DNA from: Thiotrichaceae bacterium UBA5859
Lineage (GTDB): Bacteria; Pseudomonadota; Gammaproteobacteria; UBA5859
DNA length: 64,000 nucleotides
Direction: 5' to 3'
NCBI GenBank assembly: GCA_002432655.1
Contig: DJFZ01000032.1
Location: forward strand, 1,775-65,774
In this document: piece by piece, positions 30,050 to 60,676 of the stretch
How positions within the stretch are numbered: the stretch's first letter is position 1
How the letters are laid out: each line of letters starts with the position of its first letter
The notes under the pieces: generated by a model
Told to the model about the DNA's origin: nothing
Database searches by the model: none
Seen by the model: the letters and a program-made list of their open reading frames with translations, nothing else
Translations under genes and position numbers: made by a program

Positions 30050-30164
30050 CAATCTAGTGGCATTTTAATATACTCTTCCCTAGGCATTCTCTGTCGCTTC
30101 GGTTTTATGAGATCCTTATTGAATATCTGTTTCCACCAATTCATCTACGGCAGCTATCTAAAAT

Positions 30165-30827
30165 ATGTCCTTAACCACCACCCCGATAAATGAAATACTA
30201 AATCAGTATATACAGGATATTGGTATCCGTGAGCCGGAAGTCCTCAAGGCGATTCGTACGGCCTCTAAGGATCACCCACTAGCAGCAATGCAAGTGGCCC
30301 CGGAGCAAGGGCAATTCCTAGCCATCATTCTCAAACTGATGAATGCTCGTCGAATATTAGAAATCGGTACATTCTTAGGATACAGCGCGACCGCCTTTGC
30401 GTTGGCTTTAGGAGAAGATGGTGAGGTAGTAACTTGCGATATACGTCAAGATTGGGGGGAACTAGCCAAAGCGAACTGGCAAAAAGCGGGCGTGGATGGG
30501 ATCATCTCTCAGAAGATTGGACCTGCTACGGAGACTCTAGTTGCATTACGTGGGACACTGGGGGATGGATATTTTGACTTTGCCTTTATCGATGCGAATA
30601 AACAAGATTATCTGACCTACTACGAACACTGTTTAAAGTTGGTTCGTAGAGGTGGATTAATTACCATCGACAATACGCTCTGGAATGGAGAAGTCGTTGA
30701 TTCAAATTCAACAGACAACAAGGTAGCTGCGATAAGGCAATTTAACGCTTTTGTCCACCAGGATCAGCGTGTTGATATCTGTCTCACACCCGTTGGTGAT
30801 GGCTGTACACTACTATATGTGAGATGA
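30165..30827 (+). CDS. Class I SAM-dependent O-methyltransferase (caffeoyl-CoA OMT family 3-like)
   Basis: LEIGTFLGYSATAFALAL glycine-rich SAM motif, EVVTCDI acidic loop, ~220 aa size typical of the family. Confidence 0.75.
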   Translation: MSLTTTPINEILNQYIQDIGIREPEVLKAIRTASKDHPLAAMQVAPEQGQFLAIILKLMNARRILEIGTFLGYSATAFALALGEDGEVVTCDIRQDWGELAKANWQKAGVDGIISQKIGPATETLVALRGTLGDGYFDFAFIDANKQDYLTYYEHCLKLVRRGGLITIDNTLWNGEVVDSNSTDNKVAAIRQFNAFVHQDQRVDICLTPVGDGCTLLYVR

Positions 30828-32293: not shown

Positions 32294-32977
32294 CTACACG
32301 GCGGCCGGTAACAGAGCGTCTTCATTCTCCACGGCGCTTTTGTACTCCGCCTCTACACGGCTATGAAAATATCTTCTATTTTCCTTCAGAGCTTGGAGCA
32401 CTTGTTGAGGTCTTCCTACGTAGGGCACCCGCTTGCCCCGATGCCGGCACTCTTGTCCACACTGCTTTAACTCAATACCTAATGAGCGATAGACGCGCAA
32501 AAGTGTGAGAGGCACAATACCGACGATGCCCTCAACCTCTGCTTGATCTGAATGAGCCGAAGCGGCGCGCAACATACCCGCGATAATCGGCTTCTCCGGG
32601 CGAATGGTTTCCCTCTTTAAGCCTACTCCGATCAGCGTTTGAATAGCCAATTCTCTATCGATACACAGACGCGACAGCTCGACAATTTTTCCATGACGGC
32701 ATTTATTTAAGATGCCATCATCCAACTCAGTAATCAGTGCTGAGGGTATTTGCGGATTAGACGAAATCAAGCGAAATCCTGCCACAATCGCATGAGATGC
32801 TTTGGATTTAACAATAAAATGGCTAGAAGTTTGATCGAAGAAATCCCGCTCCATTCTATCTTTGCTGACCCGCTCAAACTGCTTTAATTCACAAAATATT
32901 CGATGTCTTAACCTAAAGTGAGCCAGTCTTGTTTCTTCATCATTTGCCAATATTACTTCAAAATGATCATCGAACAT
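32294..32977 (-). CDS. LuxI/FeeM-like GNAT-fold acyltransferase, paralog A (resembles PEP-CTERM/exosortase-associated acyltransferases)
   Basis: FRLRHRIFCEL...ELSRLCIDRE...HGKRVPYVG motifs are shared with the downstream paralog and with autoinducer-synthase/N-acyl amino acid synthase-like families. Confidence 0.55.
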   Translation of the reverse strand: MFDDHFEVILANDEETRLAHFRLRHRIFCELKQFERVSKDRMERDFFDQTSSHFIVKSKASHAIVAGFRLISSNPQIPSALITELDDGILNKCRHGKIVELSRLCIDRELAIQTLIGVGLKRETIRPEKPIIAGMLRAASAHSDQAEVEGIVGIVPLTLLRVYRSLGIELKQCGQECRHRGKRVPYVGRPQQVLQALKENRRYFHSRVEAEYKSAVENEDALLPAAV

Positions 32978-33305
32978 CTACATAAACCTTCCTTGAATAC
33001 TGCTTTCAATATCTCCGCTGGAGATTAACTTTTTACGTTTCTAGGCACTGCGCGGGGTTAAAACCCAGATTGACTCATCTTATAGCGACTGGATTGTGCT
33101 CAGATTGAAGACGGGATCACCTTCGGATTGGCTCACTTCCGCCCTCTATCTATCGATGAAAAAATGAATTTATCAATAAAAATAAGGTGTTGGGAGGTTA
33201 ATCTAGAGTATAAAAACAAAAGTCGAACCTTTTCAACAGATTTAATATATTTCAGCGTTTATTCAACATCGTTTTTATTAAATTTTTCTTAATAATGCAC
33301 AACTT

Positions 33306-34121
33306 TTAAACATGATTAACGCAAGAACGCGGTGGATGCCAATAACACTCTCCATTGGTAATAAAATGGTAAACTTCCGGGCGCAAATGTTGAATGCCCA
33401 ACAAAACCTCTTCCACGCTGTTAAAAACCGGAACCCTCTTGCCATGGTATTCCACGTCCGTTCCAATACGCATAAATTCGATACCAAATCTCTTTAAAAG
33501 CCGTAACAACATAGGTTCCATCACCGCAAACCAATTATCAATGCCTTGGTCCGCACTCATTTGCACAATCGAACGGAACAGCCCTAAGGTGATATAGGGT
33601 AGATAGCGACGCTCATTGCTCATCGGTCCCTCATCCAATTGTTGAACAGCTTTATTGGTTATACCATGATGTACGTTTTGCTCACCAATGCGTCGTCGAA
33701 ACTCGCGAGAAACAGCAAATCTAGAAATTTCTGCAGCCGTCTTTCTGGTTTGGGAAGATACGCGGTAGCCGTAGTTTGCCAAACTAGTTCCACAATGCTG
33801 TTCAATCGGAAGCAGACTAAATTCTGAGCCATCCATCGGCAGGACCAACCGTACAGTTGCGGCATCCCAACCTGTTCTTTTATGGCGGATCAGGCAGTGT
33901 ACTGATCGACTATCGTAAATATCCCGCTCTAATCCACGATAACATTGTTGAGGATTTTCAAACGGATGCTCCAAACAATACACTTGATAACGTAGCCGAA
34001 ATACTGCGTCAAGCATTTCATCAGTTTTCACAGGCAAGATTTCGAAATAGTCGAAAAAATGATCTAACTCACTTTGTGTGGCGCTCCTGCCTAGCTCCCT
34101 TGAAACTTGTTTACTCATCAT
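33306..34121 (-). CDS. LuxI/FeeM-like GNAT-fold acyltransferase, paralog B
   Basis: FRLRYQVYCLEH...EISRFAVSREFRRR...YHGKRVPVFN; clearly alignable with paralog A along its length, with an extra N-terminal ~20 aa and internal indels. Confidence 0.55.
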   Translation of the reverse strand: MMSKQVSRELGRSATQSELDHFFDYFEILPVKTDEMLDAVFRLRYQVYCLEHPFENPQQCYRGLERDIYDSRSVHCLIRHKRTGWDAATVRLVLPMDGSEFSLLPIEQHCGTSLANYGYRVSSQTRKTAAEISRFAVSREFRRRIGEQNVHHGITNKAVQQLDEGPMSNERRYLPYITLGLFRSIVQMSADQGIDNWFAVMEPMLLRLLKRFGIEFMRIGTDVEYHGKRVPVFNSVEEVLLGIQHLRPEVYHFITNGECYWHPPRSCVNHV

Positions 34122-34278: not shown

Positions 34279-36540
34279 CTAGGAAACCGTGCTCGAACGG
34301 CGCAATCGCTCCACTATAACTACTAGAGCTGGCAACAATAACAGATCAAATGCTAACGCGGTCATCATGCCTATGGTGGTTAATAGACCAAAATATTCTA
34401 TGGGCTTGAAGCCGGAGACCACCAATAAACCAAATTGTAAACTTAAAATAATTGTGGTGACAGATAGGGCCGCCCCGACTTTCGTTAGGGCAATATGAAT
34501 CGACTGATGGACGTTTATTCCCGATTGACGGGATTGGCGATAAGCGTGAAAGAGGTGAATGGTATCATCTACGGCCACTCCCACGGCGACGCTAGCAATC
34601 ATTGCAGTGGCCATATCCAACCAAATACCACAGATCCCCATCACTGCAAAAATCAATATGATGGGAGAGATATTCGGTATCATACAAAGGATAGCGGCGG
34701 GTAAACTTCTGAATAAGATTAACAACGAAATAAAAATAAGCGACAAAGCGCCAAACAAGCTTCGAACTTGACCGCTAATGAGGAGCGATTCTTGATCCGC
34801 AAACAATCGGCCATCACCCGCTATTTGAACGGTTACTTGATCTAATGGCACCTCATTCAATCTGTCTTCGATTCGACTCATTAACCCCCGAATTTTTTGT
34901 GAGCCCTGCTCATGTACACTGATCAAAATCCGGGTTTGCGCGAAATCTCTATCCACAATGTCATATAGATCTTCGCCATCATATAACTTTAAGTATTGGG
35001 CAATTAAGCGATCGCGTTGTGGGACAACACGATAATCTTCCACGCCATCATGGAACGCCCAGTGCATCTCCTCTACATATTCCGCCATAGATAGGGTGCG
35101 ATCCACTTCTGGCTGCGCCTCTAACCAGATCTGCATCGCGCGTATCCAATTTTGACTATGTGCATTCAGCAAACCATCCCGCTGCGATGACGTGAGCAAT
35201 AGTTCCAATGAGGTGACACCACTTATTTGTTCTTGAAATTTTTCTGTGGCTTGGACTAATTCGGAGTCCGACTCAAAGTACTCCAGAAAGTTTGTTTCTG
35301 TATGGATAGCTGTGATCTTGGGAATACATGTAAACACTACAAATGCAAAACCCGCCACCACCAAGAAGGGATAGCGAGTAGCCAACAGGCTACAACTTTC
35401 TAACATTGGATCGAAGATACCCACACCAAAACGAGTTTTGGACCAACTTTTATTGTCCCACTTAGCAAACAGCGGTGGCACAATAAACATTACGATAAAA
35501 AACAAAATAAACACACCCAGGGCACTGATCAATCCGAATGTACGAATGGGTACTATCGGACTTAAACTAAGTGACGCCAAACCCGCTGCAGTGGTGATGG
35601 ATGTAAACAGTGCTGGCTTGTATATTTGTTTTAATGCTTGCGTAAACCTTCCATTCCCTTGATATCCCGATTGCTCCGCTAACAACACACTATTATAAAA
35701 ATGCACCAACAGCGCCACGGTAAGCGCGCCTAGTAAAGATGGCATCATAGTGGAAACCAGTGTATACGGTTGTCCGCTAATCACAAATAGCGCGAGGGTG
35801 GCAGTACTCACGGTATGCATCGCCACCAAGCCCACTACCACAGCCATGACACGTCGAAACATCCACCACAGTAATAACAATGCTATCCCTAACGTCAATG
35901 GGATCAGGCGCATATTTTCCTGCATCATTAAATTGAGCTGATATACATCCACTGCCACTTGACCGACGCTGCCTTGGTACCATGACATCAAATGATGTTG
36001 TTCCATTAAACCCAGTGTGGTCTGTACAAGAGAGTTTCTTTCTACACTGTTACCCATGTCGTTAGGTCGTATTACCATCGCTACAGCGGTTGCATCCTCA
36101 CTCACTAACCATCCAGGTGCGAACCTATCTTGAAGTACTGTTTGTCGAATGACATGGGGTTCGAGCTGTACAAAATTGGCCACATCGACTAATGGGACGA
36201 TTTCAAAACCGTCCTCTACTGGTTTAACAGATTCCACAGTCGTAAAAGTTAATACTTTCTCCACAAAATCTTGCCTGGAAAGATCTGTTGCCAAGTGATT
36301 TAGATTGATTAACACATTGTGCTGAAAAAGATCCTGTCCTTCAAAGAGTAAGATCAACACTTGGTCTTGAGGGAATTTCTCACGAATGAGTGCATCAATT
36401 TGCACAGCCGGTTCGGCATCGGACAAATACACGCCAGGTGCATTGTTGATTTCAAGTTGGCTTAATAGTCCAGCGGGTAAAACCAAAAATAAGATCAAGA
36501 TGATTACGGCTTGTTTGGCGCTAAAGTAGATCTTGTTCAA
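34279..36540 (-). CDS. MMPL/RND-superfamily exporter (two 6-TM bundles with sterol-sensing-like regions)
   Basis: 753 aa; periplasmic domain between TM1 and TM2, two hydrophobic bundles; TTG start overlapping the stop of the upstream gene. Confidence 0.75.
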   Translation of the reverse strand: MNKIYFSAKQAVIILILFLVLPAGLLSQLEINNAPGVYLSDAEPAVQIDALIREKFPQDQVLILLFEGQDLFQHNVLINLNHLATDLSRQDFVEKVLTFTTVESVKPVEDGFEIVPLVDVANFVQLEPHVIRQTVLQDRFAPGWLVSEDATAVAMVIRPNDMGNSVERNSLVQTTLGLMEQHHLMSWYQGSVGQVAVDVYQLNLMMQENMRLIPLTLGIALLLLWWMFRRVMAVVVGLVAMHTVSTATLALFVISGQPYTLVSTMMPSLLGALTVALLVHFYNSVLLAEQSGYQGNGRFTQALKQIYKPALFTSITTAAGLASLSLSPIVPIRTFGLISALGVFILFFIVMFIVPPLFAKWDNKSWSKTRFGVGIFDPMLESCSLLATRYPFLVVAGFAFVVFTCIPKITAIHTETNFLEYFESDSELVQATEKFQEQISGVTSLELLLTSSQRDGLLNAHSQNWIRAMQIWLEAQPEVDRTLSMAEYVEEMHWAFHDGVEDYRVVPQRDRLIAQYLKLYDGEDLYDIVDRDFAQTRILISVHEQGSQKIRGLMSRIEDRLNEVPLDQVTVQIAGDGRLFADQESLLISGQVRSLFGALSLIFISLLILFRSLPAAILCMIPNISPIILIFAVMGICGIWLDMATAMIASVAVGVAVDDTIHLFHAYRQSRQSGINVHQSIHIALTKVGAALSVTTIILSLQFGLLVVSGFKPIEYFGLLTTIGMMTALAFDLLLLPALVVIVERLRRSSTVS

Positions 36541-38366
36541 AATGCCACGCTCCAGCCAAGCGCAAGATAGTCTCTGGAGTCAAAAAATCCGCCTATTGTT
36601 TGTTCATCTCCATCAAATGTATGGTAGGCAACAATCAGCTCGTGGGGTTCGAAGTTGCGAAACACAAGCTTCGGAGAGAGATAATAGTCCTCTTCACTGA
36701 GACCGATGCGACTACGCAGTTGAAAGCGGACACGATCATTCGCGAAAGCGTACTCAAGCTGACCATTGAGTGCATAAGTTTCGTCATCATCGAGAAATGG
36801 CTCATCCGCAGTTTTGCGATTGCCCGTCAACTGTATATTGATTCGAGTATCTTTATCGCCCGGATAAAACTCCATATCCAAAATCCAATGTAGTTGTTCA
36901 CTCTCGAGTAGTGCAAGATCCACGCCCGTCACCGGCATATCCTGCAAATTTGCCACTTCAAAGCGTAGTAATGACAAACCAAGATCCCAGGCGAACTCTA
37001 ACCCTGTGGCGACGATTTTTGGATGAACTTCAAAAAAGGTAGGCCCGCTGGTGGCTGCCAGCGCAGTGTCCACATCATTGTTGGATAAAACGAGATTCTG
37101 CACCATTTCTGGTGAGACGATAAAATAAGGCTGAGGGTTTTGTGTTTCCAAATAGCTCATTCCCCAATCCATCGAATTTAACGATTGCGTAAACCTAATC
37201 CCTCCAGACTCCTGCTCTTCTTCACGTATGCTAAGGGAGCCTTGTGTCACTAGACGAGCGATCAGCGGTGTCTCACTAAAGCCTAATAGCTGCCCACTCT
37301 GAGGGGACATCAGAGTCCAGAATTGGTCTCGATCAGCGGTCAATGGAGATAAGCTATTTGGTATATATAGAACATCCAGCTTGGCAGAGCCCAGAAACCA
37401 CTCGAGACGAAGCGCCGGAGTAGCCAATCGCCGTTCAGGTAACTCATCTATAAACCCGCGTCTAATATCCTGTCGACTGAGTAAATCTAATGGGCTGAAT
37501 TCGTCTGCTTGCCCCCAAATCACCGTTTGTGCACCCAAAGTCAAACGTGCAGACTCGCCACGGTAGCGCAAATAGGCTTGATCTAGTAAAAGCTTATAAT
37601 CTCTAACTTCATTAACCGCACTAAGCACGTAAGCATCTGCTCGTGCACCGATCCTAATTTTCCAGCCTGGAGACAACGCCCAATTTAATTCAGATCCAAT
37701 ACGCAAATAATTTGGATAGGTTTCATGTTCTGCAGTTGAACGCCCAAGTTCAGAATAAAGCTCATTTTTCAGTTCAATGGACGCAAATAATGCGCTTGTT
37801 ACCTCAGTTGTTTTCTCCGGAACTGAGTCTAGTACCTCTTGTCGCTGCTCAGTGCCGTCTTCTGCTAAGTACCCTCGCACTATATATCGGAGTTGTTGCT
37901 GTTCGAAAGGATGGGAATCAACTTTGTATCCTAGCGATTCGACTCTATTTTTGGTTCTTTGCAGATAATCCCGACTTTTAAAAATGCCTACTGATATCCA
38001 TAACTGCTGAATATGTTGATTACCAAAGATCTGTGTTTCAACTCCATGCTGCGCAAGCCTTCGCTGCACCCTCTGCGCCTCATCCATTTGAGAGATCGGA
38101 CCGATGCGCAGTTGGGTGAACAACACCAGTGTCTGTTTCTTCTCAATAGAAATATTGGTTGCGCCCTGGGCTACAAGAACGTCTACCCGCTCTTGCGCGG
38201 CCGATTGTGTCTCATACATCTGCTCAAACCAATTAGAGTGTTCCTGAGCTACGAGTGTGGACAGTAAGGTGTTAATCACAAAGAGGGTGACCAGGAAAAT
38301 GAGGGTTCGGAAATGGCTGACAGCGATGAGCATACAAACAAAGTTCCGCAGGCGTAGATTTGCCAT
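36537..38366 (-). CDS. Putative outer-membrane beta-barrel protein with N-terminal signal/anchor and SPOR-like module
   Basis: 609 aa; long hydrophobic N-terminus; alternating amphipathic beta-strand-like pattern; C-terminal ...LGWSVAF ending in Phe, typical of OMP barrels; translationally coupled to the MMPL gene. Confidence 0.45.
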   Translation of the reverse strand: MANLRLRNFVCMLIAVSHFRTLIFLVTLFVINTLLSTLVAQEHSNWFEQMYETQSAAQERVDVLVAQGATNISIEKKQTLVLFTQLRIGPISQMDEAQRVQRRLAQHGVETQIFGNQHIQQLWISVGIFKSRDYLQRTKNRVESLGYKVDSHPFEQQQLRYIVRGYLAEDGTEQRQEVLDSVPEKTTEVTSALFASIELKNELYSELGRSTAEHETYPNYLRIGSELNWALSPGWKIRIGARADAYVLSAVNEVRDYKLLLDQAYLRYRGESARLTLGAQTVIWGQADEFSPLDLLSRQDIRRGFIDELPERRLATPALRLEWFLGSAKLDVLYIPNSLSPLTADRDQFWTLMSPQSGQLLGFSETPLIARLVTQGSLSIREEEQESGGIRFTQSLNSMDWGMSYLETQNPQPYFIVSPEMVQNLVLSNNDVDTALAATSGPTFFEVHPKIVATGLEFAWDLGLSLLRFEVANLQDMPVTGVDLALLESEQLHWILDMEFYPGDKDTRINIQLTGNRKTADEPFLDDDETYALNGQLEYAFANDRVRFQLRSRIGLSEEDYYLSPKLVFRNFEPHELIVAYHTFDGDEQTIGGFFDSRDYLALGWSVAF

Positions 38367-38374
38367 GACGATGA

Positions 38375-39154
38375 TTAAAGTTCTTCTAAGGAGCGTCGTG
38401 AGAATCTATCCCTTGACAAGCCCATGTCATAGTCTATGGACTCCAAGCGAATTTCGGTGCTATGTTGAGAGATCAAATCGGTCATGACCGAATGCGTCAC
38501 AGTCCAATATCCCTCGATTTTCTTTTTCGAAAGAACTTTAAAACTCTTTATAGGGTCCTCATCACCCGACCGATAAAACTCGATTTTCATCGCTAATAGG
38601 GTGTCGGGATCAATCCAGCTGAGACGCTTGCTATAAACAGTAGACTGCGCTCTGAGCGGAATACTCTCTAAAACTATACAGTCGCAGCTGCCAATGGGCA
38701 TCGCTTTCACAATCGCATGTTTATCAAGATTAGGCGGCCTATCTCTAAGATCTTCAAAGAAGATATCAGAGCCAACAAATCGTCCTCCCTTTCTGGAAGA
38801 AGCAATACGACGTGCTCGATCAAGATCAGGTAAAAAAACCAATTGCTCTTTGTTTACCCCACTCACATCATGGGTCAACAAACCCACCCCCTTCATATCT
38901 GCTGGCGAGCTAAAACGTATCAGCGAGCGAATGCCTCCAGCTCCTTCATCTAGGCGATAGGTAGTCATGCGGCGAATACGAGGCTTGGTACCAGGTGAAA
39001 TTAAATGCATTTCGCCTACAGAAACGAAATCAATACCGTCAGGTCGTTCATACACCCGCTGGGCAAGAAGATCACCATCTTCCGTTGCCCATGAGGGTTG
39101 AACAAACAGCGTCAGTATAGGCGCAATAACAGCTAAAAGTATAGAAAACCGCAC
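38375..39154 (-). CDS. LolA-like outer-membrane lipoprotein-sorting family periplasmic protein
   Basis: Signal peptide; IRFSSPADMKGVGLLTH...QLVFLPDLDRARRIASSRKGGRFVGSDIFFEDL matches the conserved core of the LolA_like family often paired with MMPL transporters. Confidence 0.65.
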   Translation of the reverse strand: MRFSILLAVIAPILTLFVQPSWATEDGDLLAQRVYERPDGIDFVSVGEMHLISPGTKPRIRRMTTYRLDEGAGGIRSLIRFSSPADMKGVGLLTHDVSGVNKEQLVFLPDLDRARRIASSRKGGRFVGSDIFFEDLRDRPPNLDKHAIVKAMPIGSCDCIVLESIPLRAQSTVYSKRLSWIDPDTLLAMKIEFYRSGDEDPIKSFKVLSKKKIEGYWTVTHSVMTDLISQHSTEIRLESIDYDMGLSRDRFSRRSLEEL

Positions 39155-39240: not shown

Positions 39241-39280
39241 AAAAAAAAAGCCTCGCAAGGCGAGGCTTTTTTGTTTTTTT
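39241..39280 (-). terminator. Rho-independent terminator downstream of the PEP-CTERM gene, likely bidirectional
   Basis: A9-gcctcgc-aag-gcgaggc-T6gT7: a GC-rich 7-bp stem, 3-nt loop, flanked by an A-run and a T-run. Confidence 0.8.
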
Positions 39281-39287: not shown

Positions 39288-40181
39288 TTACCGAACTCTT
39301 CGTCGAGCCAGACCACCCATCCCTAATAATCCTAACCCCATCAAAGCGAGCGTTCCAGGTTCAGGTACAGCAACTGTGAAGTCGATACTACCATTATGGT
39401 CAGAAAGCACAGTAAACAGTTCAGAATTTAAAGGATCTCCAGGACCTACTACTACATTATCTGTGTTTTGGTCTAAATTCCAGGAAAGCGCAATGATGCC
39501 ACCATCTAATAAATCGTTGGCATCGGAATCTGCGCTTGTATCTGCAATACCATCACCATTGCTATCAAAGAAGAAGAAATCTTCCAGAGCAAAAGTGATT
39601 TCACCAAAAATAATGGAAGAACCTGATACAAAAGCACCACCCGCGAAAAGATTCGAGCCTGTACCACCGAGAATAGTCAACTCAAGAACCTTGGTTCCAT
39701 CACCGTAGCCAGTGTCATCACCCAGACCTAAACTACCATTGTCATTGCGATTTAATGCGGTATCTAGATAAAACGAGATGACGGTACCAGAATCGTAGGT
39801 AGTGGTTTGATTTACGCCGTCAAAAGCAGTTACGGTTCCGCTTAGTCCAGTCCAGGTTGCGGTTAACTCATACCCGCCTAGAGAATCCAAACCTTCATCA
39901 TCAATTATCGCTGAAGCTATCAATCCATTAATGTAGGCATTACCAGAATCAACAAAGGAGTCCCCTACGGTTAGACCTGGATTACCATCATCATCAAATT
40001 GAACAGACTCTGTGTTCGCAGAAAAAGCGAACTGCTGTGCCACACCAGTCAGAGTGTTGGCATCAAAGCCTGTTCCAGCAGAACCTGCCACACCAACATC
40101 ATAAAAAAAGCCAGTAGCAAAAGCACTAGAACTTGCCGCTAATATTGAAGCCCCTAAAGTCGCCTTACTTAAAGTTTTCAT
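39288..40181 (-). CDS. PEP-CTERM sorting-domain exoprotein
   Basis: Signal peptide MKTLSKATLGASILAASSSAFA; Gly/Asp/Thr/Ser-rich body with Asp-rich D-x-N-x-D-G-like loops (FDSNGDGIADTSAD); C-terminal VPEPGTLALMGLGLLGMGGLARRRVR, i.e. PEP motif, TM helix and Arg cluster. Confidence 0.9.
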   Translation of the reverse strand: MKTLSKATLGASILAASSSAFATGFFYDVGVAGSAGTGFDANTLTGVAQQFAFSANTESVQFDDDGNPGLTVGDSFVDSGNAYINGLIASAIIDDEGLDSLGGYELTATWTGLSGTVTAFDGVNQTTTYDSGTVISFYLDTALNRNDNGSLGLGDDTGYGDGTKVLELTILGGTGSNLFAGGAFVSGSSIIFGEITFALEDFFFFDSNGDGIADTSADSDANDLLDGGIIALSWNLDQNTDNVVVGPGDPLNSELFTVLSDHNGSIDFTVAVPEPGTLALMGLGLLGMGGLARRRVR

Positions 40182-40230: not shown

Positions 40231-40246
40231 AGCAAGTGCTGTGCCA
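40231..40246 (-). promoter_or_regulatory. Sigma-54 (RpoN) -24/-12 promoter for the PEP-CTERM gene
   Basis: Minus strand reads TGGCAC-AGCAC-TTGCT, a perfect TGGCAC-N5-TTGCW match. The -12 element lies ~50 nt upstream of the ATG, with an AAGGGTGA Shine-Dalgarno between; the sigma-54 activator PrsR is encoded just upstream. Confidence 0.65.
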
Positions 40247-40479
40247 AACCGTCTTAACCAGAATATCTTATTGTTTTATAAAGCATTTTTTATTTATGCA
40301 TCACGACTAGAATCCACCTTAAAAGTCAGTTAGCAGGATCCGCTGATAAAACGTAAAAATAGCTGACAGATTTTATCCATGATCCTGAAACCATCTAGGC
40401 AGCCATATTGACAAATGGTCTTTTATTGTTATTTTTCAATAGCTTATATTTTAGTCGGCAGTGTAAAAAAATTTAACGG

Positions 40480-41394
40480 CTAAGGTTGAGAGCGCGCGAG
40501 TCTGCTACCGAATTGCCTTTTAGCATGTGAAATGAGCAATCTTTGCATGGGGTTCCTCCATCCAAAGGGTCTCCAAGTTTTACGTAATCGTTGTTTGTAG
40601 GCATCGAAGTGTAAGCCCCATGGTGCCGTTGTCACCTTTCCCCTAGCAAGCAAGATTTTTAAGGCTTGAGTGGCGGCTAGTCCCGCACATAACTCACAGG
40701 CCATTGGCGTAGACGGCCCTTGTCTGCGGTTAAAATCCACACGACTAGGCTCGATCAGATAACCCATCTGCAACATGGCCGGTGAAAGGCCGACCAGAAA
40801 TCGTATATATTGTTCCACTTCATCACGTCCTTGTAGGCCAAAATATGCCTCGAAAGACATGCCGCTGGGTAAAAATGCTAAGAACGCACAACCCATGCCC
40901 AAGGGAGCTGCAGTAATCGCCGGAATACCGCGCTCACCACAGGCGGTAAACAAAGCAGAACGTATTGGTAGCTGAAAAAAATCCAGGCTATCGACATAAA
41001 TATCAACGTCTTGGAGAAAATCATCCAGATTTTCCTCAGACACCCCTTGTTCAAAACCGGTTAAGTGCAACTCGGGATTAATATCGAGCGCCATCTGTGT
41101 CATGGTCTCTAATTTCGAACAACCCATGGAGCGAAGGCTGGCACCCGCTTGTCGATTAAAATTCGCAAGCTCAAAGCGATCAAATTCAGCCAGACTAAAA
41201 CCACCAACACCTAATCGGGTTAGAGTCAGCAAATGACTTCCCCCCACCCCGCCTAAACCGGCGATGGCAATTTTTTTTGCGCGTAAAATTTGCTGCTCAG
41301 ATTCGGTCACCCAACCCAGATTGCGTGAAAAAGCTTGTTCGTACTGAAACTGATTATCATCCATGATTCGTATATCGCGTGATGTCACCCTCAT
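40480..41394 (-). CDS. ThiF/MoeB/HesA-family E1-like adenylyltransferase
   Basis: IAIAGLGGVGGSHLLTLTRLGVGGFSLAEFDRFELANFNRQ is a Rossmann nucleotide-binding and E1 signature; 304 aa; a single C-x-x-C (CELC) near the C-terminus. Confidence 0.75.
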   Translation of the reverse strand: MRVTSRDIRIMDDNQFQYEQAFSRNLGWVTESEQQILRAKKIAIAGLGGVGGSHLLTLTRLGVGGFSLAEFDRFELANFNRQAGASLRSMGCSKLETMTQMALDINPELHLTGFEQGVSEENLDDFLQDVDIYVDSLDFFQLPIRSALFTACGERGIPAITAAPLGMGCAFLAFLPSGMSFEAYFGLQGRDEVEQYIRFLVGLSPAMLQMGYLIEPSRVDFNRRQGPSTPMACELCAGLAATQALKILLARGKVTTAPWGLHFDAYKQRLRKTWRPFGWRNPMQRLLISHAKRQFGSRLARSQP

Positions 41395-41405: not shown

Positions 41406-44183
41406 CTATTGTTTAAGTTCCTGCCAGAGGGCTTCTGCTTCAGCTCTTGAATTGAATTCCCTTTGGCTATAAATAAAGGGCTCGAGGATCTCTCGCGCCC
41501 TTTCTTTGGCATTCAGGTGACTATTTACGAGCGCTAGGTGATAAGCGATGTCGGCGTTATTTCGCTGCTTTTGATATGCTCTACTCAATAACTCCTGCGC
41601 CTTAGTCCATTTATTTTCTTCCACCAGCAGCATAGCATAAGTATCCATGACTGCCGGCACCTCTGGTGCTAACTGATAGGCTTTTTCAGCGTGAGATAAG
41701 GCTTGTTGATACTCTTTGTCCCTTAAGTGCCAGGCTAGATTATTTAATGCCACTAGATTATTAGGTTTAACAGCTATTACTTTCTGCCAATAGGTAATCG
41801 CCAACTCTATTTGAGCCAGAGCTAAATATTCGTTTGCCATCCAAATCATTAAGCCCGTATCCTGGGGTCTATCTGCTATCCAGGCGTCGACAAATCTTTC
41901 CACCTGTTGCCAACCGCGACCAAGCTTTATCACCTGAGCAAGTGCGATAGCATTGCGCTCAGAGGCTTCAATCTCGATAGCTTGCCGCAGCGCGCGCTCT
42001 GCTCTTGAAAAATCTTGTACACCGTGGGCCAAGTCCGCCTCTAGCTCAAGTCCCATCACGGCCTCAGGCCACAACTGACGATATCGGTTAACTAAGGGCT
42101 CCGCTCGGCTAAATTGCTTTTCTTGCAGTAACAGTAAGGCAAGAATTCCTGTGGCAGACTGATTTTGTTCCTGCTCTTGTAACACCTGACGCAGATGGAA
42201 CTTAGCCTCTTCTGGATAACCGGCCGCCATATACGCCTGCGAAATGAGCAAGTTCGCATCAATATGGTTAGGATATGCATTCAATACGCGACGACAAGAC
42301 TGCACGGCTTGTTCCGGTTTGCCACGGCGAATCAATAGTTCACAATGAAACAGGGTGAGATCAGGTTGATCGGGTTCAACCTCCAACCCTTCATTAATTT
42401 GCGCCAGGACTTCGTTTAGCCTCTCTTCACTGAACAAATACTTAATTAAGGCAATTCGATTTTTAATCGAGTTTGCATCACTTCGCAATGCCAGCCGCAA
42501 CCAGCGCTCATAAGCATCAAAATCTTTTCGGGCACGGGCTAACTTGGCCATTTTCTCAATAGCCACTACATTGTTTTCATCTTGCTTCCAAACATCTAAA
42601 AACCACTTCTCAGCAAGCTCGTAGTCACCCCGACCCATAGCTATCTCGCCAATGTTAAATGCCGGCGAAGGATTTTTTCCATCAAGCTGATGTGCGCGTT
42701 CGAAACTAGCCATTGCTTCGTCCTCTTGTTTCAAGGACAAATGTGCGATACCCATCAAATTGTACGCAACAGGCTCCTTAGGGTAAGCAGCCACCCACTG
42801 GTTCGCAGCCTTAATAGCCGCATCAAATCGTTGCGCATCCAACAAGGCGAGGGTTTTAGTGAGATGAATTTGTGGGCCTGCTTGCGGTCGACCGAGTAAC
42901 GTATCAAGTTCTGTTAAGCCTCTATCAACCTGATCTGCGTCCACCAATGCTCCTGCCAGCTTAAACCTCAAAATATCTTCGTTTGGATTCTTGTCTACTA
43001 TCTCCTCCATCAGTTGCAAACCACGTTCTGTTTCGCCTTCACGCAGATATAGTTGTGCAGACAATAGCGTCAAACCGAGATGATCCACCGACAAAAGTAA
43101 ACCCTCTTCCACCACTTTTCTCGCCCGCTCTAGTTGCCCACTCTGAATTAAGATTTCCCCCAATAGTCGATAGGCGCCCACATTTTTGGGATGATCAAAA
43201 AGATATCGGGATACCAAACGCTCTGCCTGTGAATAATTTTTATCCTGCAAAAAAATAGTTGCCAACAGCAAAGGCACGTCCCTAAAGGAACGATACCTGG
43301 ACTCAATTTCCAGAAGAATCGCTCGTGCCTCATCTACCTGTCTATTTTGTAAAAGGATACGAGCCTTAGCGTATCGAGTTTCCAAATTACCATATATTTT
43401 ATCTGCTAATTCCACGTCTTTTAGGGCGGCTGCCGGTTGATTGCTATCGCTAAAATAATAGGCCCGTTGCAGCACTGCTAACCAATGATCCCGACTTCCA
43501 GGTACCGCCGATTTGATTGCTTGCGCGAACACGGCTTCCACCTCTGCACCTGATTCACCTTGAGTGGCCAACAGTAGCGCATAGATTCGGTATGCTTCCG
43601 ATACTGCACTATCCATCTGAATGGCCCTACTCAATGTGAGTGTCGCTTCTTCGAGATCGCCTTGGTTCTTTAAAATCAATCCGTATAAAGCAAGTGCTTC
43701 GCTATCGCTTGATAAATTTTCTAGACTGGTCAATAAATCTATCGCTTCTGGATAGCGGCCAAGAGCGAGCAGCACCCTCGCCTCTAACTTTATCAATGCA
43801 GATGTCGGCACCGCATTTTCAGGAACTTGTGCCAAACGAGATAATGCCAGTTCATTCTCATGCCTAAAGTGCGCAGCCTCGGCAAACGCCAGAATAAAAT
43901 CAAGGTCGGTTGCCCCCAATGCCTCTGCTTTTTCTAATTCCTTTTCCGCCGTGGGACCATCGCCAAGCAGCAAATAGTTTTCACCCAATAGGCGACGAGC
44001 TTCCACATGGTCTGGGCTGCGTTGCAATATGGTTTTCAGATCCAAAACACTTGCCTGGATCTCTCCTTGAGACTGCGCTACTTTCGCCCGCTCAAACAGC
44101 TCCTCATCGGAGGGTGTCCTGCTACAAGCGACTAACAGAAGTACCGGAACTAAAAAACCAAAAACCATCCTAATAAAACCCAT
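41406..44183 (-). CDS. prsT: PEP-CTERM system TPR-repeat lipoprotein, PrsT-like
   Basis: 925 aa; lipobox LLLVAC-S after the signal peptide; TPR repeats throughout; size and context match PrsT. Confidence 0.7.
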   Translation of the reverse strand: MGFIRMVFGFLVPVLLLVACSRTPSDEELFERAKVAQSQGEIQASVLDLKTILQRSPDHVEARRLLGENYLLLGDGPTAEKELEKAEALGATDLDFILAFAEAAHFRHENELALSRLAQVPENAVPTSALIKLEARVLLALGRYPEAIDLLTSLENLSSDSEALALYGLILKNQGDLEEATLTLSRAIQMDSAVSEAYRIYALLLATQGESGAEVEAVFAQAIKSAVPGSRDHWLAVLQRAYYFSDSNQPAAALKDVELADKIYGNLETRYAKARILLQNRQVDEARAILLEIESRYRSFRDVPLLLATIFLQDKNYSQAERLVSRYLFDHPKNVGAYRLLGEILIQSGQLERARKVVEEGLLLSVDHLGLTLLSAQLYLREGETERGLQLMEEIVDKNPNEDILRFKLAGALVDADQVDRGLTELDTLLGRPQAGPQIHLTKTLALLDAQRFDAAIKAANQWVAAYPKEPVAYNLMGIAHLSLKQEDEAMASFERAHQLDGKNPSPAFNIGEIAMGRGDYELAEKWFLDVWKQDENNVVAIEKMAKLARARKDFDAYERWLRLALRSDANSIKNRIALIKYLFSEERLNEVLAQINEGLEVEPDQPDLTLFHCELLIRRGKPEQAVQSCRRVLNAYPNHIDANLLISQAYMAAGYPEEAKFHLRQVLQEQEQNQSATGILALLLLQEKQFSRAEPLVNRYRQLWPEAVMGLELEADLAHGVQDFSRAERALRQAIEIEASERNAIALAQVIKLGRGWQQVERFVDAWIADRPQDTGLMIWMANEYLALAQIELAITYWQKVIAVKPNNLVALNNLAWHLRDKEYQQALSHAEKAYQLAPEVPAVMDTYAMLLVEENKWTKAQELLSRAYQKQRNNADIAYHLALVNSHLNAKERAREILEPFIYSQREFNSRAEAEALWQELKQ

Positions 44184-44210: not shown

Positions 44211-46982
44211 CTAGCTATCTAACTGGGTCAGAAGCTGTTCTGCTTGTGTTCGACTACTAAACGATCCAGGATTGGACAACAACTTTGTCAATAACGCTTT
44301 TGCTTCTGACTTTTTACCATTTCGCTGCAGTAACACCGCCAAATGATATGAAATCTCCTGATCTTTCGGATTAAGCCTATGTGCCTTATGAAGCAACTCG
44401 CTGGCGTGGTTCAGTTTGTTGTGCGACAGAAGCACCCACCCATACGTATCCACCACCGCAGCATCCTCAGGCGCCAATTGATAAGCCGATTTAGCATGCT
44501 TAAGAGCTTTTTGCAGATCAGTGTCTAGATAAAGATAGGCCAGATTGTTGTGGATCTGTACTTCTGATCCGGAAGATTCGTCCAGCAATCTTTCGTACTC
44601 GGCAATTGCCAAAGTGGACTGCCCAAGACGATGATATAAGGTCGCGAGCGCCAATCTGATATCTGTATTTGGTTCGTTGATGGTCAATGCGTCCGTTAAA
44701 AGAGTTATCGCCTTTTTTGGCTGTCCGGCTCGGAGACTTGCCCGGCTTGCTTGTATTAAAATCTCATCGGCTGGCTCTCGCACGTACGCGATTTCGTAGT
44801 TTTCGGCAGCCAATCCGAATCGATTTTGATGCGTGTAAATCTTAGCCGCCAAGTGATATCCCACAGCTTCATTTGGAGCTAACTGCTGCAGTCTATATGC
44901 AAATGCAAGCGCCAGATCTGGCTTCGCCCGACGCATCGCCAAATCCACTGCTACGATTAAGGTTCTCGGCCTCAAGCTATCTTCTGCGATTGACTGTAAC
45001 TGACTCCAAGCTTGTTGATATTGTTGTTGTTGGTAAAGTGCGTAAACAATAGATTCTGTGACACCGACTCCTGGGCTGAGTGCCCCCCCTAGTCCCTGAT
45101 AGTAGTCCAAAGCCAATGACCAGTGTTCATATTCTAAAAACACGTCACCGATACGCCTTCTCAGAGACAAACCGTCTGCATTCAAATTAAGTAATTGCTC
45201 CGCTATTCGTTGCGCCGCGGACGGATCCCCCATAGTCAGATGCACCCGCATGGTCATAAAACCAGCAGCTAAATCCTGAGGATTCAATTCCCAAGCCTGC
45301 TGGGCTGTTTGCAAAGCTTTTGAGTTATTTCCCGAATATAGATAGAACCTAGCTTGAGTTAACAACAGCTGTTTATCCAAAGGTACCTTTTTGCTCGCCT
45401 TTCTATAAAGCCTCTCTGCTTCATCAAAGTCTCGCTGCTGACGCTTAACTTCAGCTAAATTTAGCAGCGCTGGTAGATAATCTGCTTGCATCGATAACGC
45501 ATGATTGAATCGTTCCGAGGCCGCATCCACATCACCCTGATACAGTTTCACTAGCCCCAATAAATTAGCAGCAAAGGGTTCACTGGGATATCGGGCGAAC
45601 AAACGCTCAGCTTCTACAACTGCATCGTCGCTATATCCCGCTGTCAACAATGATAATACGGTAATATAACCGCTCTGTAATGAATCTGCTGCCGCACTAT
45701 ATCGTGCTTGCTCTAATGCTTGTTCTATTTGTCCGGAATAAATTGACTGAATCGTGTTTCGAATTTTTGCATTTTCGTCGTAGGGCTGAAGAAAACTAGC
45801 TTTCTCCAAAAGGTGCAATCCTTTTTTTTGCTCTCCTGATTCAATGTAAGCCAACCCCAATAGAGTCATTAGATCCGTATTGCCGTGATTCGATGATTGA
45901 ACCTGAGTTAACGTTGACACCGCACAAGAACTACAGCCCAGTAGTAACTGGACATTGGCATAAAGCATACTAATTTCTAAATTATTAGGTTCTAATTCTA
46001 AGTAATGCTTGAAGTGCTGTGTCGCTTGCTGATGATTGTCCTTGGCCATCGCTACTCGACCCAACAACTCCAATGCAGAAAGCTGATTCGGCTCCACCGA
46101 CAAAATTTCTTTTAGTTGCTGCTCGGCCAGATCATACTGTTGCGCAGACCACAACCATTGCGCCTGTAAAATTTTAGCAGGGAGCAAAGTGGGCTCTCTT
46201 TCCAATAACCAATTAATATCTTCCTGGGCACGATTGAACTCTTCATCAGCTAACAACAAGGCTGCGCGTCTTAACCTCGCTTCTATATTCTGAGGATGTG
46301 TTCTCAAGATTTTGGAATATTGTAATCTAGCTGCTTTTATACTCCCCCGTTTTTCATACAGTTGTGCACGTATAAACTGTGCACCAGAGTCATTCGGAAA
46401 ACTATCTAATAGCATGGTTAGATGACGTTCTGCAGAAACATCATCTCCTAGTTCAAATGCTTTGCGCGCCAAAGCCCAATTCGCCGTATGGCTTTTTGGG
46501 GATAACTCTAAGGCCTGTTGGAATTTAATTGTACCCTCTTTTATTTGACCCAAGTTCAATTCGGCCTGTGTTCGAAGCGCCAGAATTTCTCCTCTGATCT
46601 CTTGTGAATCATTGGCTTGCACTGTCAATTGATTCAGTATTTCTCTATTTTTTTCCTGTGCTAGGAAAAACTGCCCAAGCCATATCACATAAAATTTACG
46701 AGATAAGCCTTTCGTCTTAGCCAACTCAATCGCATGTTCTGCTTCATCGTAGCGCCCCATTTGCGCATAGATTTGGCTCAATAGAAATGGTGTGGAGAAG
46801 TTATTGGGATCTGCTTGTTGCGCATTCTTCAATTCAATCAATGCGGCACGAAAGTCTCCAGCCTCGACATATAGACGAGCACTGTCTTGAAATTGATCTA
46901 CGGAATCAGCCGCGAGCGGTATTGGACAGAGAAGAACAATCGCTATGAACTGTAGGTTTCTAGCTAACTTCACAACACTCAT
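44211..46982 (-). CDS. Second PrsT-like ~920-aa TPR protein (paralog; signal peptide, lipobox doubtful)
   Basis: 923 aa; signal peptide; TPR repeats; same length class and orientation as the adjacent prsT. Confidence 0.65.
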   Translation of the reverse strand: MSVVKLARNLQFIAIVLLCPIPLAADSVDQFQDSARLYVEAGDFRAALIELKNAQQADPNNFSTPFLLSQIYAQMGRYDEAEHAIELAKTKGLSRKFYVIWLGQFFLAQEKNREILNQLTVQANDSQEIRGEILALRTQAELNLGQIKEGTIKFQQALELSPKSHTANWALARKAFELGDDVSAERHLTMLLDSFPNDSGAQFIRAQLYEKRGSIKAARLQYSKILRTHPQNIEARLRRAALLLADEEFNRAQEDINWLLEREPTLLPAKILQAQWLWSAQQYDLAEQQLKEILSVEPNQLSALELLGRVAMAKDNHQQATQHFKHYLELEPNNLEISMLYANVQLLLGCSSCAVSTLTQVQSSNHGNTDLMTLLGLAYIESGEQKKGLHLLEKASFLQPYDENAKIRNTIQSIYSGQIEQALEQARYSAAADSLQSGYITVLSLLTAGYSDDAVVEAERLFARYPSEPFAANLLGLVKLYQGDVDAASERFNHALSMQADYLPALLNLAEVKRQQRDFDEAERLYRKASKKVPLDKQLLLTQARFYLYSGNNSKALQTAQQAWELNPQDLAAGFMTMRVHLTMGDPSAAQRIAEQLLNLNADGLSLRRRIGDVFLEYEHWSLALDYYQGLGGALSPGVGVTESIVYALYQQQQYQQAWSQLQSIAEDSLRPRTLIVAVDLAMRRAKPDLALAFAYRLQQLAPNEAVGYHLAAKIYTHQNRFGLAAENYEIAYVREPADEILIQASRASLRAGQPKKAITLLTDALTINEPNTDIRLALATLYHRLGQSTLAIAEYERLLDESSGSEVQIHNNLAYLYLDTDLQKALKHAKSAYQLAPEDAAVVDTYGWVLLSHNKLNHASELLHKAHRLNPKDQEISYHLAVLLQRNGKKSEAKALLTKLLSNPGSFSSRTQAEQLLTQLDS

Positions 46983-47021: not shown

Positions 47022-48383
47022 TCAAACTTTCAAATTATATTTACTCATTAAAGAGTAAAGTGTCGGCCGAGTGATACCTAGTAGTTCAGCAGCACGGGAC
47101 ATATTCCCTCCGGCATGACCTACTGCCTGAATGATGGCGTTCGTCTCTGCGCGTTCACGTACGGTGCGTAAGTTAAGAGGCAAAGACTGGTCTTTTTCTG
47201 CCGGAGTAATTTCTAGCTCGTCTGCTGAGATTTCATTGCCCTCAGCCATAATGACCGCTCTCTTGACGCGATTTTCTAATTCACGCACATTGCCAGGCCA
47301 TGCATAGTCCACAATTGCTTGACTGGCTTGAGAGGAAAACCCCTTAATTTCGATGCGATTCATTTCCCTTTTGAACCTATCTAAAAATGCCTTTGCCAAT
47401 AGCAGCACATCGCCTTCACGGGCTTTCAGCGGAGGAATATTAACCGTTACTTCACTAATTCGATAATACAAATCTTCTCTAAAATCACCTTGTTCTATTT
47501 TTTCTAATAGATCTTGATGAGTCGCTGAAATGATCCTCACGTCTACAGCTATTTGCCGTCGCCCCCCTACTCTCTCGATCACGCGCTCCTGGAGAAAACG
47601 TAAAAGTTTCGCTTGTAGTGGCAGGGGTAAGTCACCTATCTCATCCAGAAACAAAGTACCGCCGTTGGCCTGCTCAATCTTACCAATGGTTTGCTTAATG
47701 GCCCCGGTAAAGGCACCTTTTTCATGACCAAAGAGTTCCGATTCCAGCAAGTTGTCGGGGATAGCCGCACAATTGATAGCAATAAATGGCTCCTGCTCTC
47801 GACGACTTAGTTCATGTAATGCACGGGCAATGACTTCCTTCCCGGTACCACTTTGGCCAAGTAATAACACGGTTGCGTCGGTAGGGGCCAATTTTTCCAC
47901 CGTTCGACAAACTTTTAACATTTGAGGACTGGCCGCAATAATCCCCTTCAAGGGCGACGTCAGTTGAGTACTATGCTGCTGTCTCGACTCCTCTTCCAAC
48001 TGCCATACATGAAACGCTCGATCAACTATTAATTTAAGCACATCCGCATCAATAGGTTTTTGATAAAAATCATAAGCACCTTTTTCAACCGCCTGAATCG
48101 CTACTTTGCGATCCTCGTTTCCGGTCACCACAATGATTTTAGTGGCAGGTTGCAACTCTAATATTTCGGCGAGCGCCTTGAGCCCCTCACTTGCATTCGC
48201 CGGATCGGGTGGTAAGCCTAGATCACAAATCACCACTTGAGGCTCGTGACGTCGCAAGGCTTTAATTCCCGTCGCTCGGTCCGAACTAATCTCAACTAAA
48301 TAATCCTCGAAACACCATTTCAGCTGTTTTTGTAATCCTGCATCATCTTCAATTATCAAAATTGTTGGTTTTTCTTCCGACAC
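47022..48383 (-). CDS. prsR: Sigma-54-dependent response regulator of the PEP-CTERM system (NtrC family)
   Basis: Receiver domain (ILIIEDD...CDLGLP), AAA+ sigma-54 interaction domain with Walker A GQSGTGKE and GAFTGA motif (EKGAFTGA), C-terminal Fis-type HTH. Confidence 0.85.
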   Translation of the reverse strand: MSEEKPTILIIEDDAGLQKQLKWCFEDYLVEISSDRATGIKALRRHEPQVVICDLGLPPDPANASEGLKALAEILELQPATKIIVVTGNEDRKVAIQAVEKGAYDFYQKPIDADVLKLIVDRAFHVWQLEEESRQQHSTQLTSPLKGIIAASPQMLKVCRTVEKLAPTDATVLLLGQSGTGKEVIARALHELSRREQEPFIAINCAAIPDNLLESELFGHEKGAFTGAIKQTIGKIEQANGGTLFLDEIGDLPLPLQAKLLRFLQERVIERVGGRRQIAVDVRIISATHQDLLEKIEQGDFREDLYYRISEVTVNIPPLKAREGDVLLLAKAFLDRFKREMNRIEIKGFSSQASQAIVDYAWPGNVRELENRVKRAVIMAEGNEISADELEITPAEKDQSLPLNLRTVRERAETNAIIQAVGHAGGNMSRAAELLGITRPTLYSLMSKYNLKV

Positions 48384-56941: not shown

Positions 56942-56961
56942 ATAACACTTTTAGCGGATCC

Positions 56962-58858: not shown

Positions 58859-58860
58859 AT

Positions 58861-60675: not shown

Positions 60676-60676
60676 C

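Follow-up and report, generated by a model that had tools for sequence, protein, structure and literature searches.

An E1-like adenylating enzyme in a PEP-CTERM locus of a Thiotrichaceae bacterium and its possible role in N-acyl amino acid cyclization

What an E1-like adenylating enzyme could contribute to a PEP-CTERM locus is the question raised by a ThiF-type gene on contig DJFZ01000032.1 of Thiotrichaceae bacterium UBA5859. In the stretch of 64,000 nucleotides analyzed here (positions 1,775 to 65,774 of the contig; hereafter, the window), this gene follows the prsK, prsR, and prsT genes and is itself followed by the gene of a PEP-CTERM protein. PEP-CTERM/exosortase systems make bacteria flocculate, as in activated sludge, through a chemistry that is largely obscure. 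Genes for N-acyl amino acid synthases (NASs) were reportedly tied genetically to these systems in 2011 without explanation; that work on PEP-CTERM/exosortase-associated NASs by Craig, Cherry, and Brady (J Bacteriol 193:5707), which deals with gene clusters of the kind found here, is said to have focused on the acyltransferases. To our knowledge, no biological role has been assigned to the ThiF-type oxazolone synthetases found between 2020 and 2025. The recurrence of NAS, ThiF, and usually a flavin-dependent oxidase of the nitroreductase superfamily (hereafter, FDO) in PEP-CTERM loci, often directly upstream of pepA, suggests that these two stories are one pathway. The ThiF protein of the window is probably (at roughly 60%) a cytoplasmic enzyme of the OxzB/TyzB/TrzS type, which would adenylate and cyclize N-acyl amino acids to give a lipid tied to flocculation through PepA and exopolysaccharide (EPS). 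This assignment is based on its equivalog family, the architecture and neighborhood of NAS, ThiF, and FDO, and a statement in the literature.

Family, fold, and conserved residues of the ThiF protein

The open reading frame (ORF) is not a chance reading, because its product strongly matches both the Pfam ThiF domain (PF00899, E 1.1e-37) and the NCBIfam model NF006077 (PRK08223; 420.8 bits against a cut-off of 266, E 2.3e-126), and the E1/ThiF-type adenylyltransferase of the original prediction is therefore real. NF006077 is an equivalog model that is named only "hypothetical protein", and the alignment to it is nearly end to end, with residues 14-298 of the protein corresponding to profile positions 3-288 of 296. 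Read from the first ATG, the ORF encodes 304 amino acids (aa). Because the identical public protein P0001, which carries the locus tag DCZ03_05395, is annotated at 294 aa and homologue alignments start at about residue 14-16, M11 (41364) is probably the start codon in use.

The ThiF Pfam domain, together with the public naming of homologues as "molybdopterin/thiamine biosynthesis adenylyltransferase", could be taken to indicate a housekeeping ThiF, MoeB, or TcdA enzyme that lies beside PEP-CTERM genes by chance. However, the housekeeping ThiF, MoeB, MoeZ, and TcdA models gave 54-79 bits against cut-offs of 159-377 (best ThiF model, 78.5 against 159; TIGR02356, 77.2 against 275; MoeB, 69.5 against 266; TcdA, 54.5 against 304), and a grouping with ThiF, MoeB, or TcdA is thus contradicted. 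The protein contains a single CxxC motif, C233-E-L-C236 in the 304-aa numbering, which not all family members retain (of 57 sequences, 44 have C233 and 53 have C236), and no second CxxC that could complete a two-CxxC zinc site was present in it. The earlier proposal that one CxxC pair speaks against a zinc-bound ThiF/MoeB orthologue is borne out by these scores. The fold and the adenylation residues are common to the window protein and ThiF, MoeB, and TcdA, but the identity is 20-24%, and the window protein possesses neither the zinc site, nor the carrier partner, nor the crossover-loop cysteine. TcdA likewise cyclizes an activated carboxylate.

By sequence, the nearest solved structures are ThiF, TcdA, MoeB, UBA5, PaaA, and MccB (E 1e-14 to 1e-5). 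The AlphaFold2 (AF2) model of the protein (pLDDT 92.8) has an E1-like fold and matches E1-like structures in the PDB with TM-scores of 0.58-0.70 at 16-24% identity; normalized to query length, ThiF and MoeB reach 0.65-0.70 and TcdA 0.58. The modeled protein is thus E1-like in fold, with no solved structure close to it. The residues of adenylation (R24, G46/G48/G51, D72, N78, N80, R81, Q82, K94, D135, and D138) are invariant in 57 of 57 family sequences. D135 aligns with the aspartate of the ThiF adenylation motif, which is D127 in Escherichia coli ThiF. In TrzS, the residue of this motif is D217, the mutation of which abolishes cyclization (PMC12856293). D135 would therefore be the counterpart of TrzS D217, by way of the shared motif and not of an alignment with TrzS. 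No signal peptide was found in the sequence of the protein, and with its adenylation residues all invariant, the enzyme looks active.

Among characterized E1-like enzymes, most act on carboxylates of proteins, peptides, or tRNA (PMC12596934), and the best PDB fold matches of the AF2 model include PaaA, ThiF, AclA, MoeB, and MccB. Since the gene also adjoins a PEP-CTERM gene, the enzyme might adenylate a C-terminal carboxylate, either of the PEP-CTERM tail, of a ThiS/MoaD-like carrier, or of a precursor of a ribosomally synthesized and post-translationally modified peptide (RiPP), as the original prediction had partly envisaged. Several features make this improbable. Among the ORFs of 40-160 aa in the window, a single one, which runs antisense within the MMPL gene, has a terminal GG (34495-34704, plus strand), and no small GG-ending ORF recurs in the related loci described below, so that the search for a ThiS/MoaD-like partner yielded no credible candidate. 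An N-terminal peptide-clamp domain is missing from the protein: some 20 residues precede the Rossmann fold in the 294-aa form, and MccB and PaaA align with the protein only from their residues 109-127 onward. No crossover-loop cysteine occurs in the segment that extends from the end of the Rossmann core to residue 232. The domain fusions of the family, discussed below, also point elsewhere.

NAS, ThiF, and FDO genes in related loci

In total, 56 loci were found through peptide patterns of the query in contigs representing one genome per species, and the 52 loci whose ThiF protein is at least 50% identical to that of the window were counted as orthologous. Annotation was carried out with tblastn and with hidden Markov models (HMMs) built from conserved neighbors on the basis of crude ORF calling; PEP-CTERM ORFs were called by a regular expression and spot-checked with Pfam, and the many clusters of antisense shadow ORFs that crude clustering produced in GC-rich loci were ignored. 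A NAS gene is located within 400 nt of the ThiF gene, directly upstream, in 30 of the 52 loci, and somewhere in the locus in 43. FDO is fused to ThiF or encoded within 400 nt in 34 loci and present anywhere in 38. Among the 52, 17 have a PEP-CTERM ORF no more than 2 kb from the ThiF gene, mostly placed right behind that of the FDO, and 26 have one anywhere in the locus. At least one marker of the PEP-CTERM system was detected in 47 of the 52 loci and in 32 of the 33 that are flanked by 5 kb or more of sequence on each side. Orthologues of the gene therefore do recur in PEP-CTERM loci, and the notion of an unrelated hitch-hiker gene, which the original prediction had also entertained, has to be given up in view of these markers and of the 17 loci with a nearby PEP-CTERM gene.

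The usual gene directly downstream of the ThiF gene encodes the FDO, a nitroreductase-superfamily protein of about 355 aa that is often fused to the ThiF domain; these partners match Pfam PF00881, the NCBIfam model of the Acg/Rv3131 FMN oxidoreductase, and the C-terminal half of the Rv1355c (TrzS) model. The partner NASs belong to TIGR03694 ("PEP-CTERM/exosortase system-associated acyltransferase") in Gammaproteobacteria and match Pfam FeeM in Burkholderiales, and the gene order NAS-ThiF-FDO-pepA is recurrent. Identities of 57-67% were obtained between the window protein and the ThiF halves of two-domain proteins encoded directly behind a NAS gene (for example, L003, L006, and L041), and the ThiF half of the ThiF-FDO protein in L006 scores 447.9 bits on NF006077. 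Of the 52 loci, 14 have a LolA-like gene no farther than 400 nt from the ThiF gene, and 20 contain an MMPL gene; a DUF1302 gene co-occurs with the LolA-like and MMPL genes beside the ThiF gene. On the other hand, a prsT gene within 400 nt occurs in 2 of the 52 loci, so that the position of the ThiF gene directly behind prsT is rare; the conserved partners lie elsewhere in the window (NAS, 32294-34121; LolA-like, DUF1302, and MMPL, 34279-39154).

When 1.84 billion cluster representatives were searched exhaustively, matches at E 1e-30 or better numbered 386. The best 150 of these, which represent clusters at 50% identity, comprise 75 ThiF-FDO, 8 FDO-ThiF, 2 NAS-ThiF-FDO, and 1 NAS-ThiF proteins and about 58 with ThiF alone, according to a scan with models of NAS, ThiF, and FDO only; fusion to or adjacency with an FDO was counted for at least 86 of the 150. 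These fusions to NAS and FDO domains argue for a small-molecule lipid pathway rather than for chemistry on protein C-termini, and peptide-binding or carrier domains did not appear as fusion partners within the reach of the three models. A triple fusion also surfaced in a tblastn search of a plasmid collection: DVU_RS16045 on the megaplasmid pDV1 of Nitratidesulfovibrio vulgaris Hildenborough (L057, NC_005863.1, 37254-40223), the prototype of PRK14852, is a 989-aa protein that joins a FeeM-type NAS, a ThiF domain (353.8 bits on NF006077), and a nitroreductase. It is flanked by a TIGR03013 transferase and a tetratricopeptide repeat (TPR) protein upstream and by three PEP-CTERM genes downstream, two of which are of the THxN family. 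This fusion is Rosetta-stone evidence for a three-enzyme pathway and shows that the PEP-CTERM association reaches another phylum. With sub-cut-off scores, one CxxC, no GG partner in the window, and a conserved synteny with NAS, FDO, and PEP-CTERM genes that extends across phyla, a housekeeping ThiF, MoeB, or TcdA identity is effectively refuted.

The enzyme family and its chemistry (2020-2025) and the genetic link between NAS and PEP-CTERM systems are already known. New in the searchable literature are the ThiF cyclase and FDO as recurrent parts of PEP-CTERM/pepA loci and, in addition, the FDO-less variants that are wired to the prsKRT operon and to the LolA/DUF1302/MMPL trio. No paper in that literature joins oxazolone, OxzB, or TyzB with exosortase or PEP-CTERM, and the terms exosortase and PEP-CTERM are absent from the OxzB preprint, the review PMC12596934, the tyz and trz papers, and the stieleriacine paper.

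Comparison with oxazolone synthetases and proposed pathway

N-Acyl oxazolones are produced by OxzA/OxzB of Pseudoalteromonas rubra and other proteobacteria (bioRxiv 10.1101/2020.06.11.147165; PMC12596934), by TyzA/TyzC/TyzB of Mycobacterium tuberculosis (PMC10404671), and by TrzA/TrzS (PMC12856293). In these systems, NAS supplies an N-acyl amino acid, the ThiF part activates the carboxylate of this compound as the adenylate and closes the ring in an ATP-dependent manner, and FDO desaturates it (bioRxiv 10.1101/2020.06.11.147165; PMC12596934; PMC10404671; PMC12856293); in TrzS, cyclization precedes desaturation and works on the saturated substrate (PMC12856293). OxzB is a ThiF-nitroreductase di-domain protein with the N-acyltransferase OxzA as partner. 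Like the window protein, it is proteobacterial, and the NAS gene directly upstream of oxzB has its parallel in relatives of the window gene such as L003, L006, and L041, whereas the window protein has no FDO domain. TyzB (Rv2338c, formerly "MoeW") is a stand-alone N-acyl-tyrosine cyclase of the ThiF type with 318 aa, comparable to the stand-alone protein of about 300 aa in the window, and the tyz cluster is flanked by mmpL9 (PMC10404671), as the window cluster includes an MMPL gene. The ATP-dependent cyclization to an oxazolone carried out by TyzB is also the chemistry proposed for the window protein. In contrast to the latter, TyzB is encoded beside an FDO, TyzC, and is an actinobacterial enzyme without PEP-CTERM context.

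Operons of NAS, ThiF, and nitroreductase genes in Thalassotalea sp. PP2-459 and Massilia kyonggiensis give rise to N-acyl dehydrotyrosines, namely the thalassotalic and kyonggic acids, and the ThiF protein of the former is said to resemble TyzB (PMC12479983). The corresponding operon of Thalassotalea marina encodes a TIGR03694 NAS (269 bits), an NF006077 ThiF protein (410 bits), and an Acg-type FDO. Its ThiF protein is 55% identical to that of the window over 283 residues without gaps. The same two NCBIfam families are thus found in both loci, but the T. marina operon has an FDO and lies outside a PEP-CTERM locus, as no PEP-CTERM genes were found within 10 kb of it. As a separate observation, genes for an AMP-binding enzyme and an Orn/DAP/Arg decarboxylase precede the NAS gene on the same strand in T. 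marina (L058/L059), which may point to additional tailoring or provision of substrate in this lineage.

Based on these comparisons, a possible pathway was proposed. The analysis itself shows the fold, the conservation of the adenylation residues, the family assignment, the fusions, and the neighborhood counts; substrate, product, export route, and the tie to flocculation are inferred from these. In the first step, the ThiF enzyme would use ATP and Mg2+ to adenylate the free α-carboxylate of an N-acyl amino acid, for which NAS-1 of the window is the predicted supplier. The amide oxygen could then attack the acyl-adenylate to form a 2-alkyl-5(4H)-oxazolone (azlactone). In most relatives, the fused or adjacent FDO would subsequently desaturate the amino acid side chain. 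In the window, either an FDO encoded elsewhere in the genome may take over this step, or the product may be a saturated, more reactive oxazolone or a product of its hydrolysis or transfer; with no FDO in the window, the saturated 5(4H)-oxazolone or such a derivative would be expected. Finally, the lipid would probably be passed to the envelope via the LolA-like, DUF1302, and MMPL proteins, which are read as a lipid exporter, and it would probably act there with the PepA-type PEP-CTERM protein and exopolysaccharide in flocculation. The coupling to PepA and EPS is suggested by the gene order NAS-ThiF-FDO-pepA, by the requirement of pepA and prsT for flocculation in Aquincola (PMC9850573), and by the loss of a polysaccharide band in a NAS (ExoAT) mutant of Methylomonas LW13 (PMC11072679). 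If correct, this pathway would place oxazolone and N-acyl-dehydroamino-acid lipids in a physiological setting open to testing, namely floc and EPS formation under the control of PrsK, PrsR, and sigma-54, and would provide the PEP-CTERM field with a concrete small molecule to seek. The FDO-less variants predict a chemically different, more reactive product.

Several observations weigh against the assignment to the OxzB/TyzB/TrzS type. No FDO homologue was found in the window (tblastn with 10 queries, no match below E = 0.09, and an HMM search) or in the nearest relative, L001, a Thiotrichaceae metagenome-assembled genome (MAG) with 83% identity, so that one part of the canonical two-enzyme chemistry is missing at this locus. 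The NAS genes of the window belong to the same cluster but lie 6.4-7.5 kb downstream of the ThiF gene and are not adjacent to it. The Rv1355c (TrzS) family model scored 71.5 bits against a cut-off of 476, about the level of the ThiF models. The likeness to OxzB and TyzB was drawn from the architecture and, indirectly, from the equivalog that the window protein shares with the Thalassotalea ThiF protein, which is reported to be similar to TyzB (PMC12479983), and not from direct alignment: oxzAB of Skermanella or Pseudoalteromonas was not found by tblastn of the plasmid collection, and homologue searches with L041 and L044 returned only the name "ThiF family adenylyltransferase" and none from the five species with expressed oxzAB. 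The loci compared come from close relatives in one collection rather than from an unbiased sample. Furthermore, no oxazolone was seen in the producers of thalassotalic and kyonggic acids, and the role of ThiF there was called enigmatic (PMC12479983).

The absence of FDO extends beyond the window, since 13 of the 52 loci retain NAS but have no FDO within 10 kb; these are mainly Ectothiorhodospiraceae loci of the order NAS-NAS-ThiF-LolA-DUF1302-MMPL, and tandem NAS pairs beside the ThiF gene recur in this family. In a neighbor-joining tree without support values, which was used solely to show this nesting, the window protein falls among gammaproteobacterial sequences with fused or adjacent FDO. 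Only three minor positions differ between FDO-less and FDO-linked ThiF proteins, and the window protein has the FDO-linked residue at all three. Because it nests among FDO-linked sequences and does not have the residue differences of FDO-less members, the FDO was probably lost or relocated recently, while the ThiF enzyme itself looks orthodox. As residue markers of FDO-less ThiF proteins, the differing positions were not convincing.

A further possibility arises at this point, in which the activated acyl-adenylate or saturated azlactone is kept as a donor of the N-acyl-aminoacyl group to the PepA-type PEP-CTERM protein or to exopolysaccharide, so that sorting by exosortase would be coupled to lipidation. 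Saturated 5(4H)-oxazolones are labile, easily racemized, and reactive acyl donors. Such a role could account for an FDO that is missing in the window and in the 13 loci that retain NAS, and oxazolones have been called versatile synthetic intermediates (de Rond et al., bioRxiv 10.1101/2020.06.11.147165). PEP-CTERM genes follow ThiF or FDO in 17 of the 52 loci and also on the Desulfovibrio plasmid pDV1, recombinant PepA of Aquincola runs as three bands owing to an unexplained processing or modification (PMC9850573), and the lost polysaccharide band of the Methylomonas mutant would fit as well. However, a transferase for such a step has not been identified, every characterized homologue releases small molecules, and the Thalassotalea operon has no PEP-CTERM genes within 10 kb. 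The FDO-less ThiF proteins also show no systematic sequence change, with the window protein resembling the FDO-linked ones. This donor role is accordingly rated unlikely, although less so than the adenylation of protein or peptide C-termini. A broader form, in which the activated N-acyl-aminoacyl species made by the ThiF enzymes of PEP-CTERM loci are no end products but serve as donors or acceptor precursors for covalent lipidation of exosortase substrates such as PepA or of EPS, is slightly more doubtful than this donor role; if true, it would be the missing chemical link between NAS genes, exosortase sorting, and floc formation. Release of a cyclized N-acyl amino acid by an OxzB/TyzB/TrzS-type enzyme remains the preferred interpretation.

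Organization of the window locus

All genes of the locus are on the minus strand in the order prsK-prsR-prsT-prsT-thiF / pepA / lolA-like-DUF1302-MMPL / NAS / NAS / TPR (Table 1), and the order in L001 is identical. Family matches support the PrsK, PrsR, and PrsT genes that the original prediction had placed upstream of the ThiF gene, with PrsT in two copies, and also a sugar transferase gene ahead of them. These genes are separated by gaps of 15-39 nt. The second prsT stop codon is 11 nt from the first ATG of the ThiF gene, the distance originally given, but 41 nt from M11 if, as is likely, translation starts there; a scan of the 11-nt gap found no terminator or promoter-like site. Owing to the common strand, the short gaps, and this gap without such a site, it is plausible that the ThiF gene is the last gene of the operon, as had been predicted, and it apparently forms the tail of the prsKRT transcript. 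The next gene downstream, at a distance of 298 nt, is indeed that of a PEP-CTERM protein.

Table 1. Features of the locus in window coordinates, with the matches that support them.
Feature	Position	Strand	Support
TIGR03013 XrtA/PEP-CTERM sugar transferase	50508-51905	-	545 bits
PrsK	48402-50492	-	TIGR02916, 636 bits
PrsR	47022-48383	-	TIGR02915, 706 bits
PrsT TPR lipoprotein, full-length, first of tandem	44211-46982	-	TIGR02917, 484 bits (cut-off 312)
PrsT TPR lipoprotein, full-length, second of tandem	41406-44183	-	TIGR02917, 433 bits (cut-off 312)
ThiF-fold adenylating enzyme, NF006077/PRK08223 family	40480-41394	-	ORF, family scores, AF2 fold
Sigma-54 promoter-like element TGGCACAGCACTTGCT	40231-40246	-	50 nt upstream of the pepA ATG
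PepA-like PEP-CTERM protein, flocculation-associated type	39288-40181	-	NF033554 floc_PepA, 101 bits (cut-off 80); PF07589
GC-rich 13-bp hairpin with T/A runs on both sides, terminator-like	39244-39272	either	directly after pepA
LolA-like periplasmic protein with signal peptide	38375-39154	-	Pfam LolA_like, 163 bits
DUF1302-type predicted outer-membrane protein with N-terminal SPOR domain	36537-38366	-	Pfam DUF1302, SPOR
MMPL/HAE3-type RND transporter	34279-36540	-	TIGR00921, Pfam MMPL
NAS-1	33306-34121	-	TIGR03694, 250.4 bits (cut-off 112); Pfam Acetyltransf_5, Autoind_synth, FeeM
NAS-2, more divergent NAS paralogue	32294-32977	-	TIGR03694, 105.2 bits (just below cut-off); Pfam Acetyltransf_5, Autoind_synth

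The element TGGCACAGCACTTGCT is the sole exact match to TGGCAC-N5-TTGCW in the 64-kb window and is identical in L001. Because this unique conserved element lies upstream of pepA and a strong hairpin follows the gene, pepA is most likely a sigma-54 transcription unit of its own, and pepA is RpoN-dependent in Aquincola (PMC9850573). In the spacer between thiF and pepA, a block of 17 nt, TGTCAGCTATTTTTACG (40352-40368, minus strand), is located about 105 nt upstream of the sigma-54 element and is perfectly kept between the window and L001, whereas the spacer around it has diverged; it could be a candidate enhancer-binding site of PrsR ("PEP-CTERM box"). The two PrsT paralogues consist of 923 and 925 aa and stand in place of a single one, and two shorter TPR proteins with partial similarity to PrsT flank the locus (30874-31962, minus strand; 56962-57633, plus strand).

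A trypsin-like serine protease (Pfam Trypsin_2) is encoded at 53510-54316 (minus strand), and homologues with 46-52% identity occur a few kb from the ThiF gene in L002, L021, L033, and L044. A trypsin-family gene is also found near the T. marina operon (L058, 4425-5180), and the PEP-CTERM cluster of Rubrivivax likewise opens with an S1 peptidase. The scan of window ORFs of at least 120 aa against NCBIfam or Pfam gave no recognizable exosortase (XrtA) match. The region 54920-63718 holds further genes of the EPS type, encoding a Wzy_C/O-antigen-ligase-like membrane protein, a GNAT Acetyltransf_6 (FemAB-like) protein, a polysaccharide deacetylase, a methyltransferase, a GT4 glycosyltransferase, and an asparagine-synthase-like protein that resembles the XrtA/PEP-CTERM amidotransferase (207 bits against a cut-off of 817).

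Farther from the ThiF gene, a DoxX-domain protein (23102-23728, minus strand) matches NF050144 ("HvfX family Cu-binding RiPP maturation protein") at 215 bits; its sole neighbor is a 113-aa ORF (22748-23089), with no obvious hvfA, hvfB, or hvfC alongside. Past the end of the NAS/TPR cluster and downstream of metH, a DUF6901 protein and a class-I (caffeoyl-CoA-type) O-methyltransferase are encoded at 29336-30827 on the plus strand.

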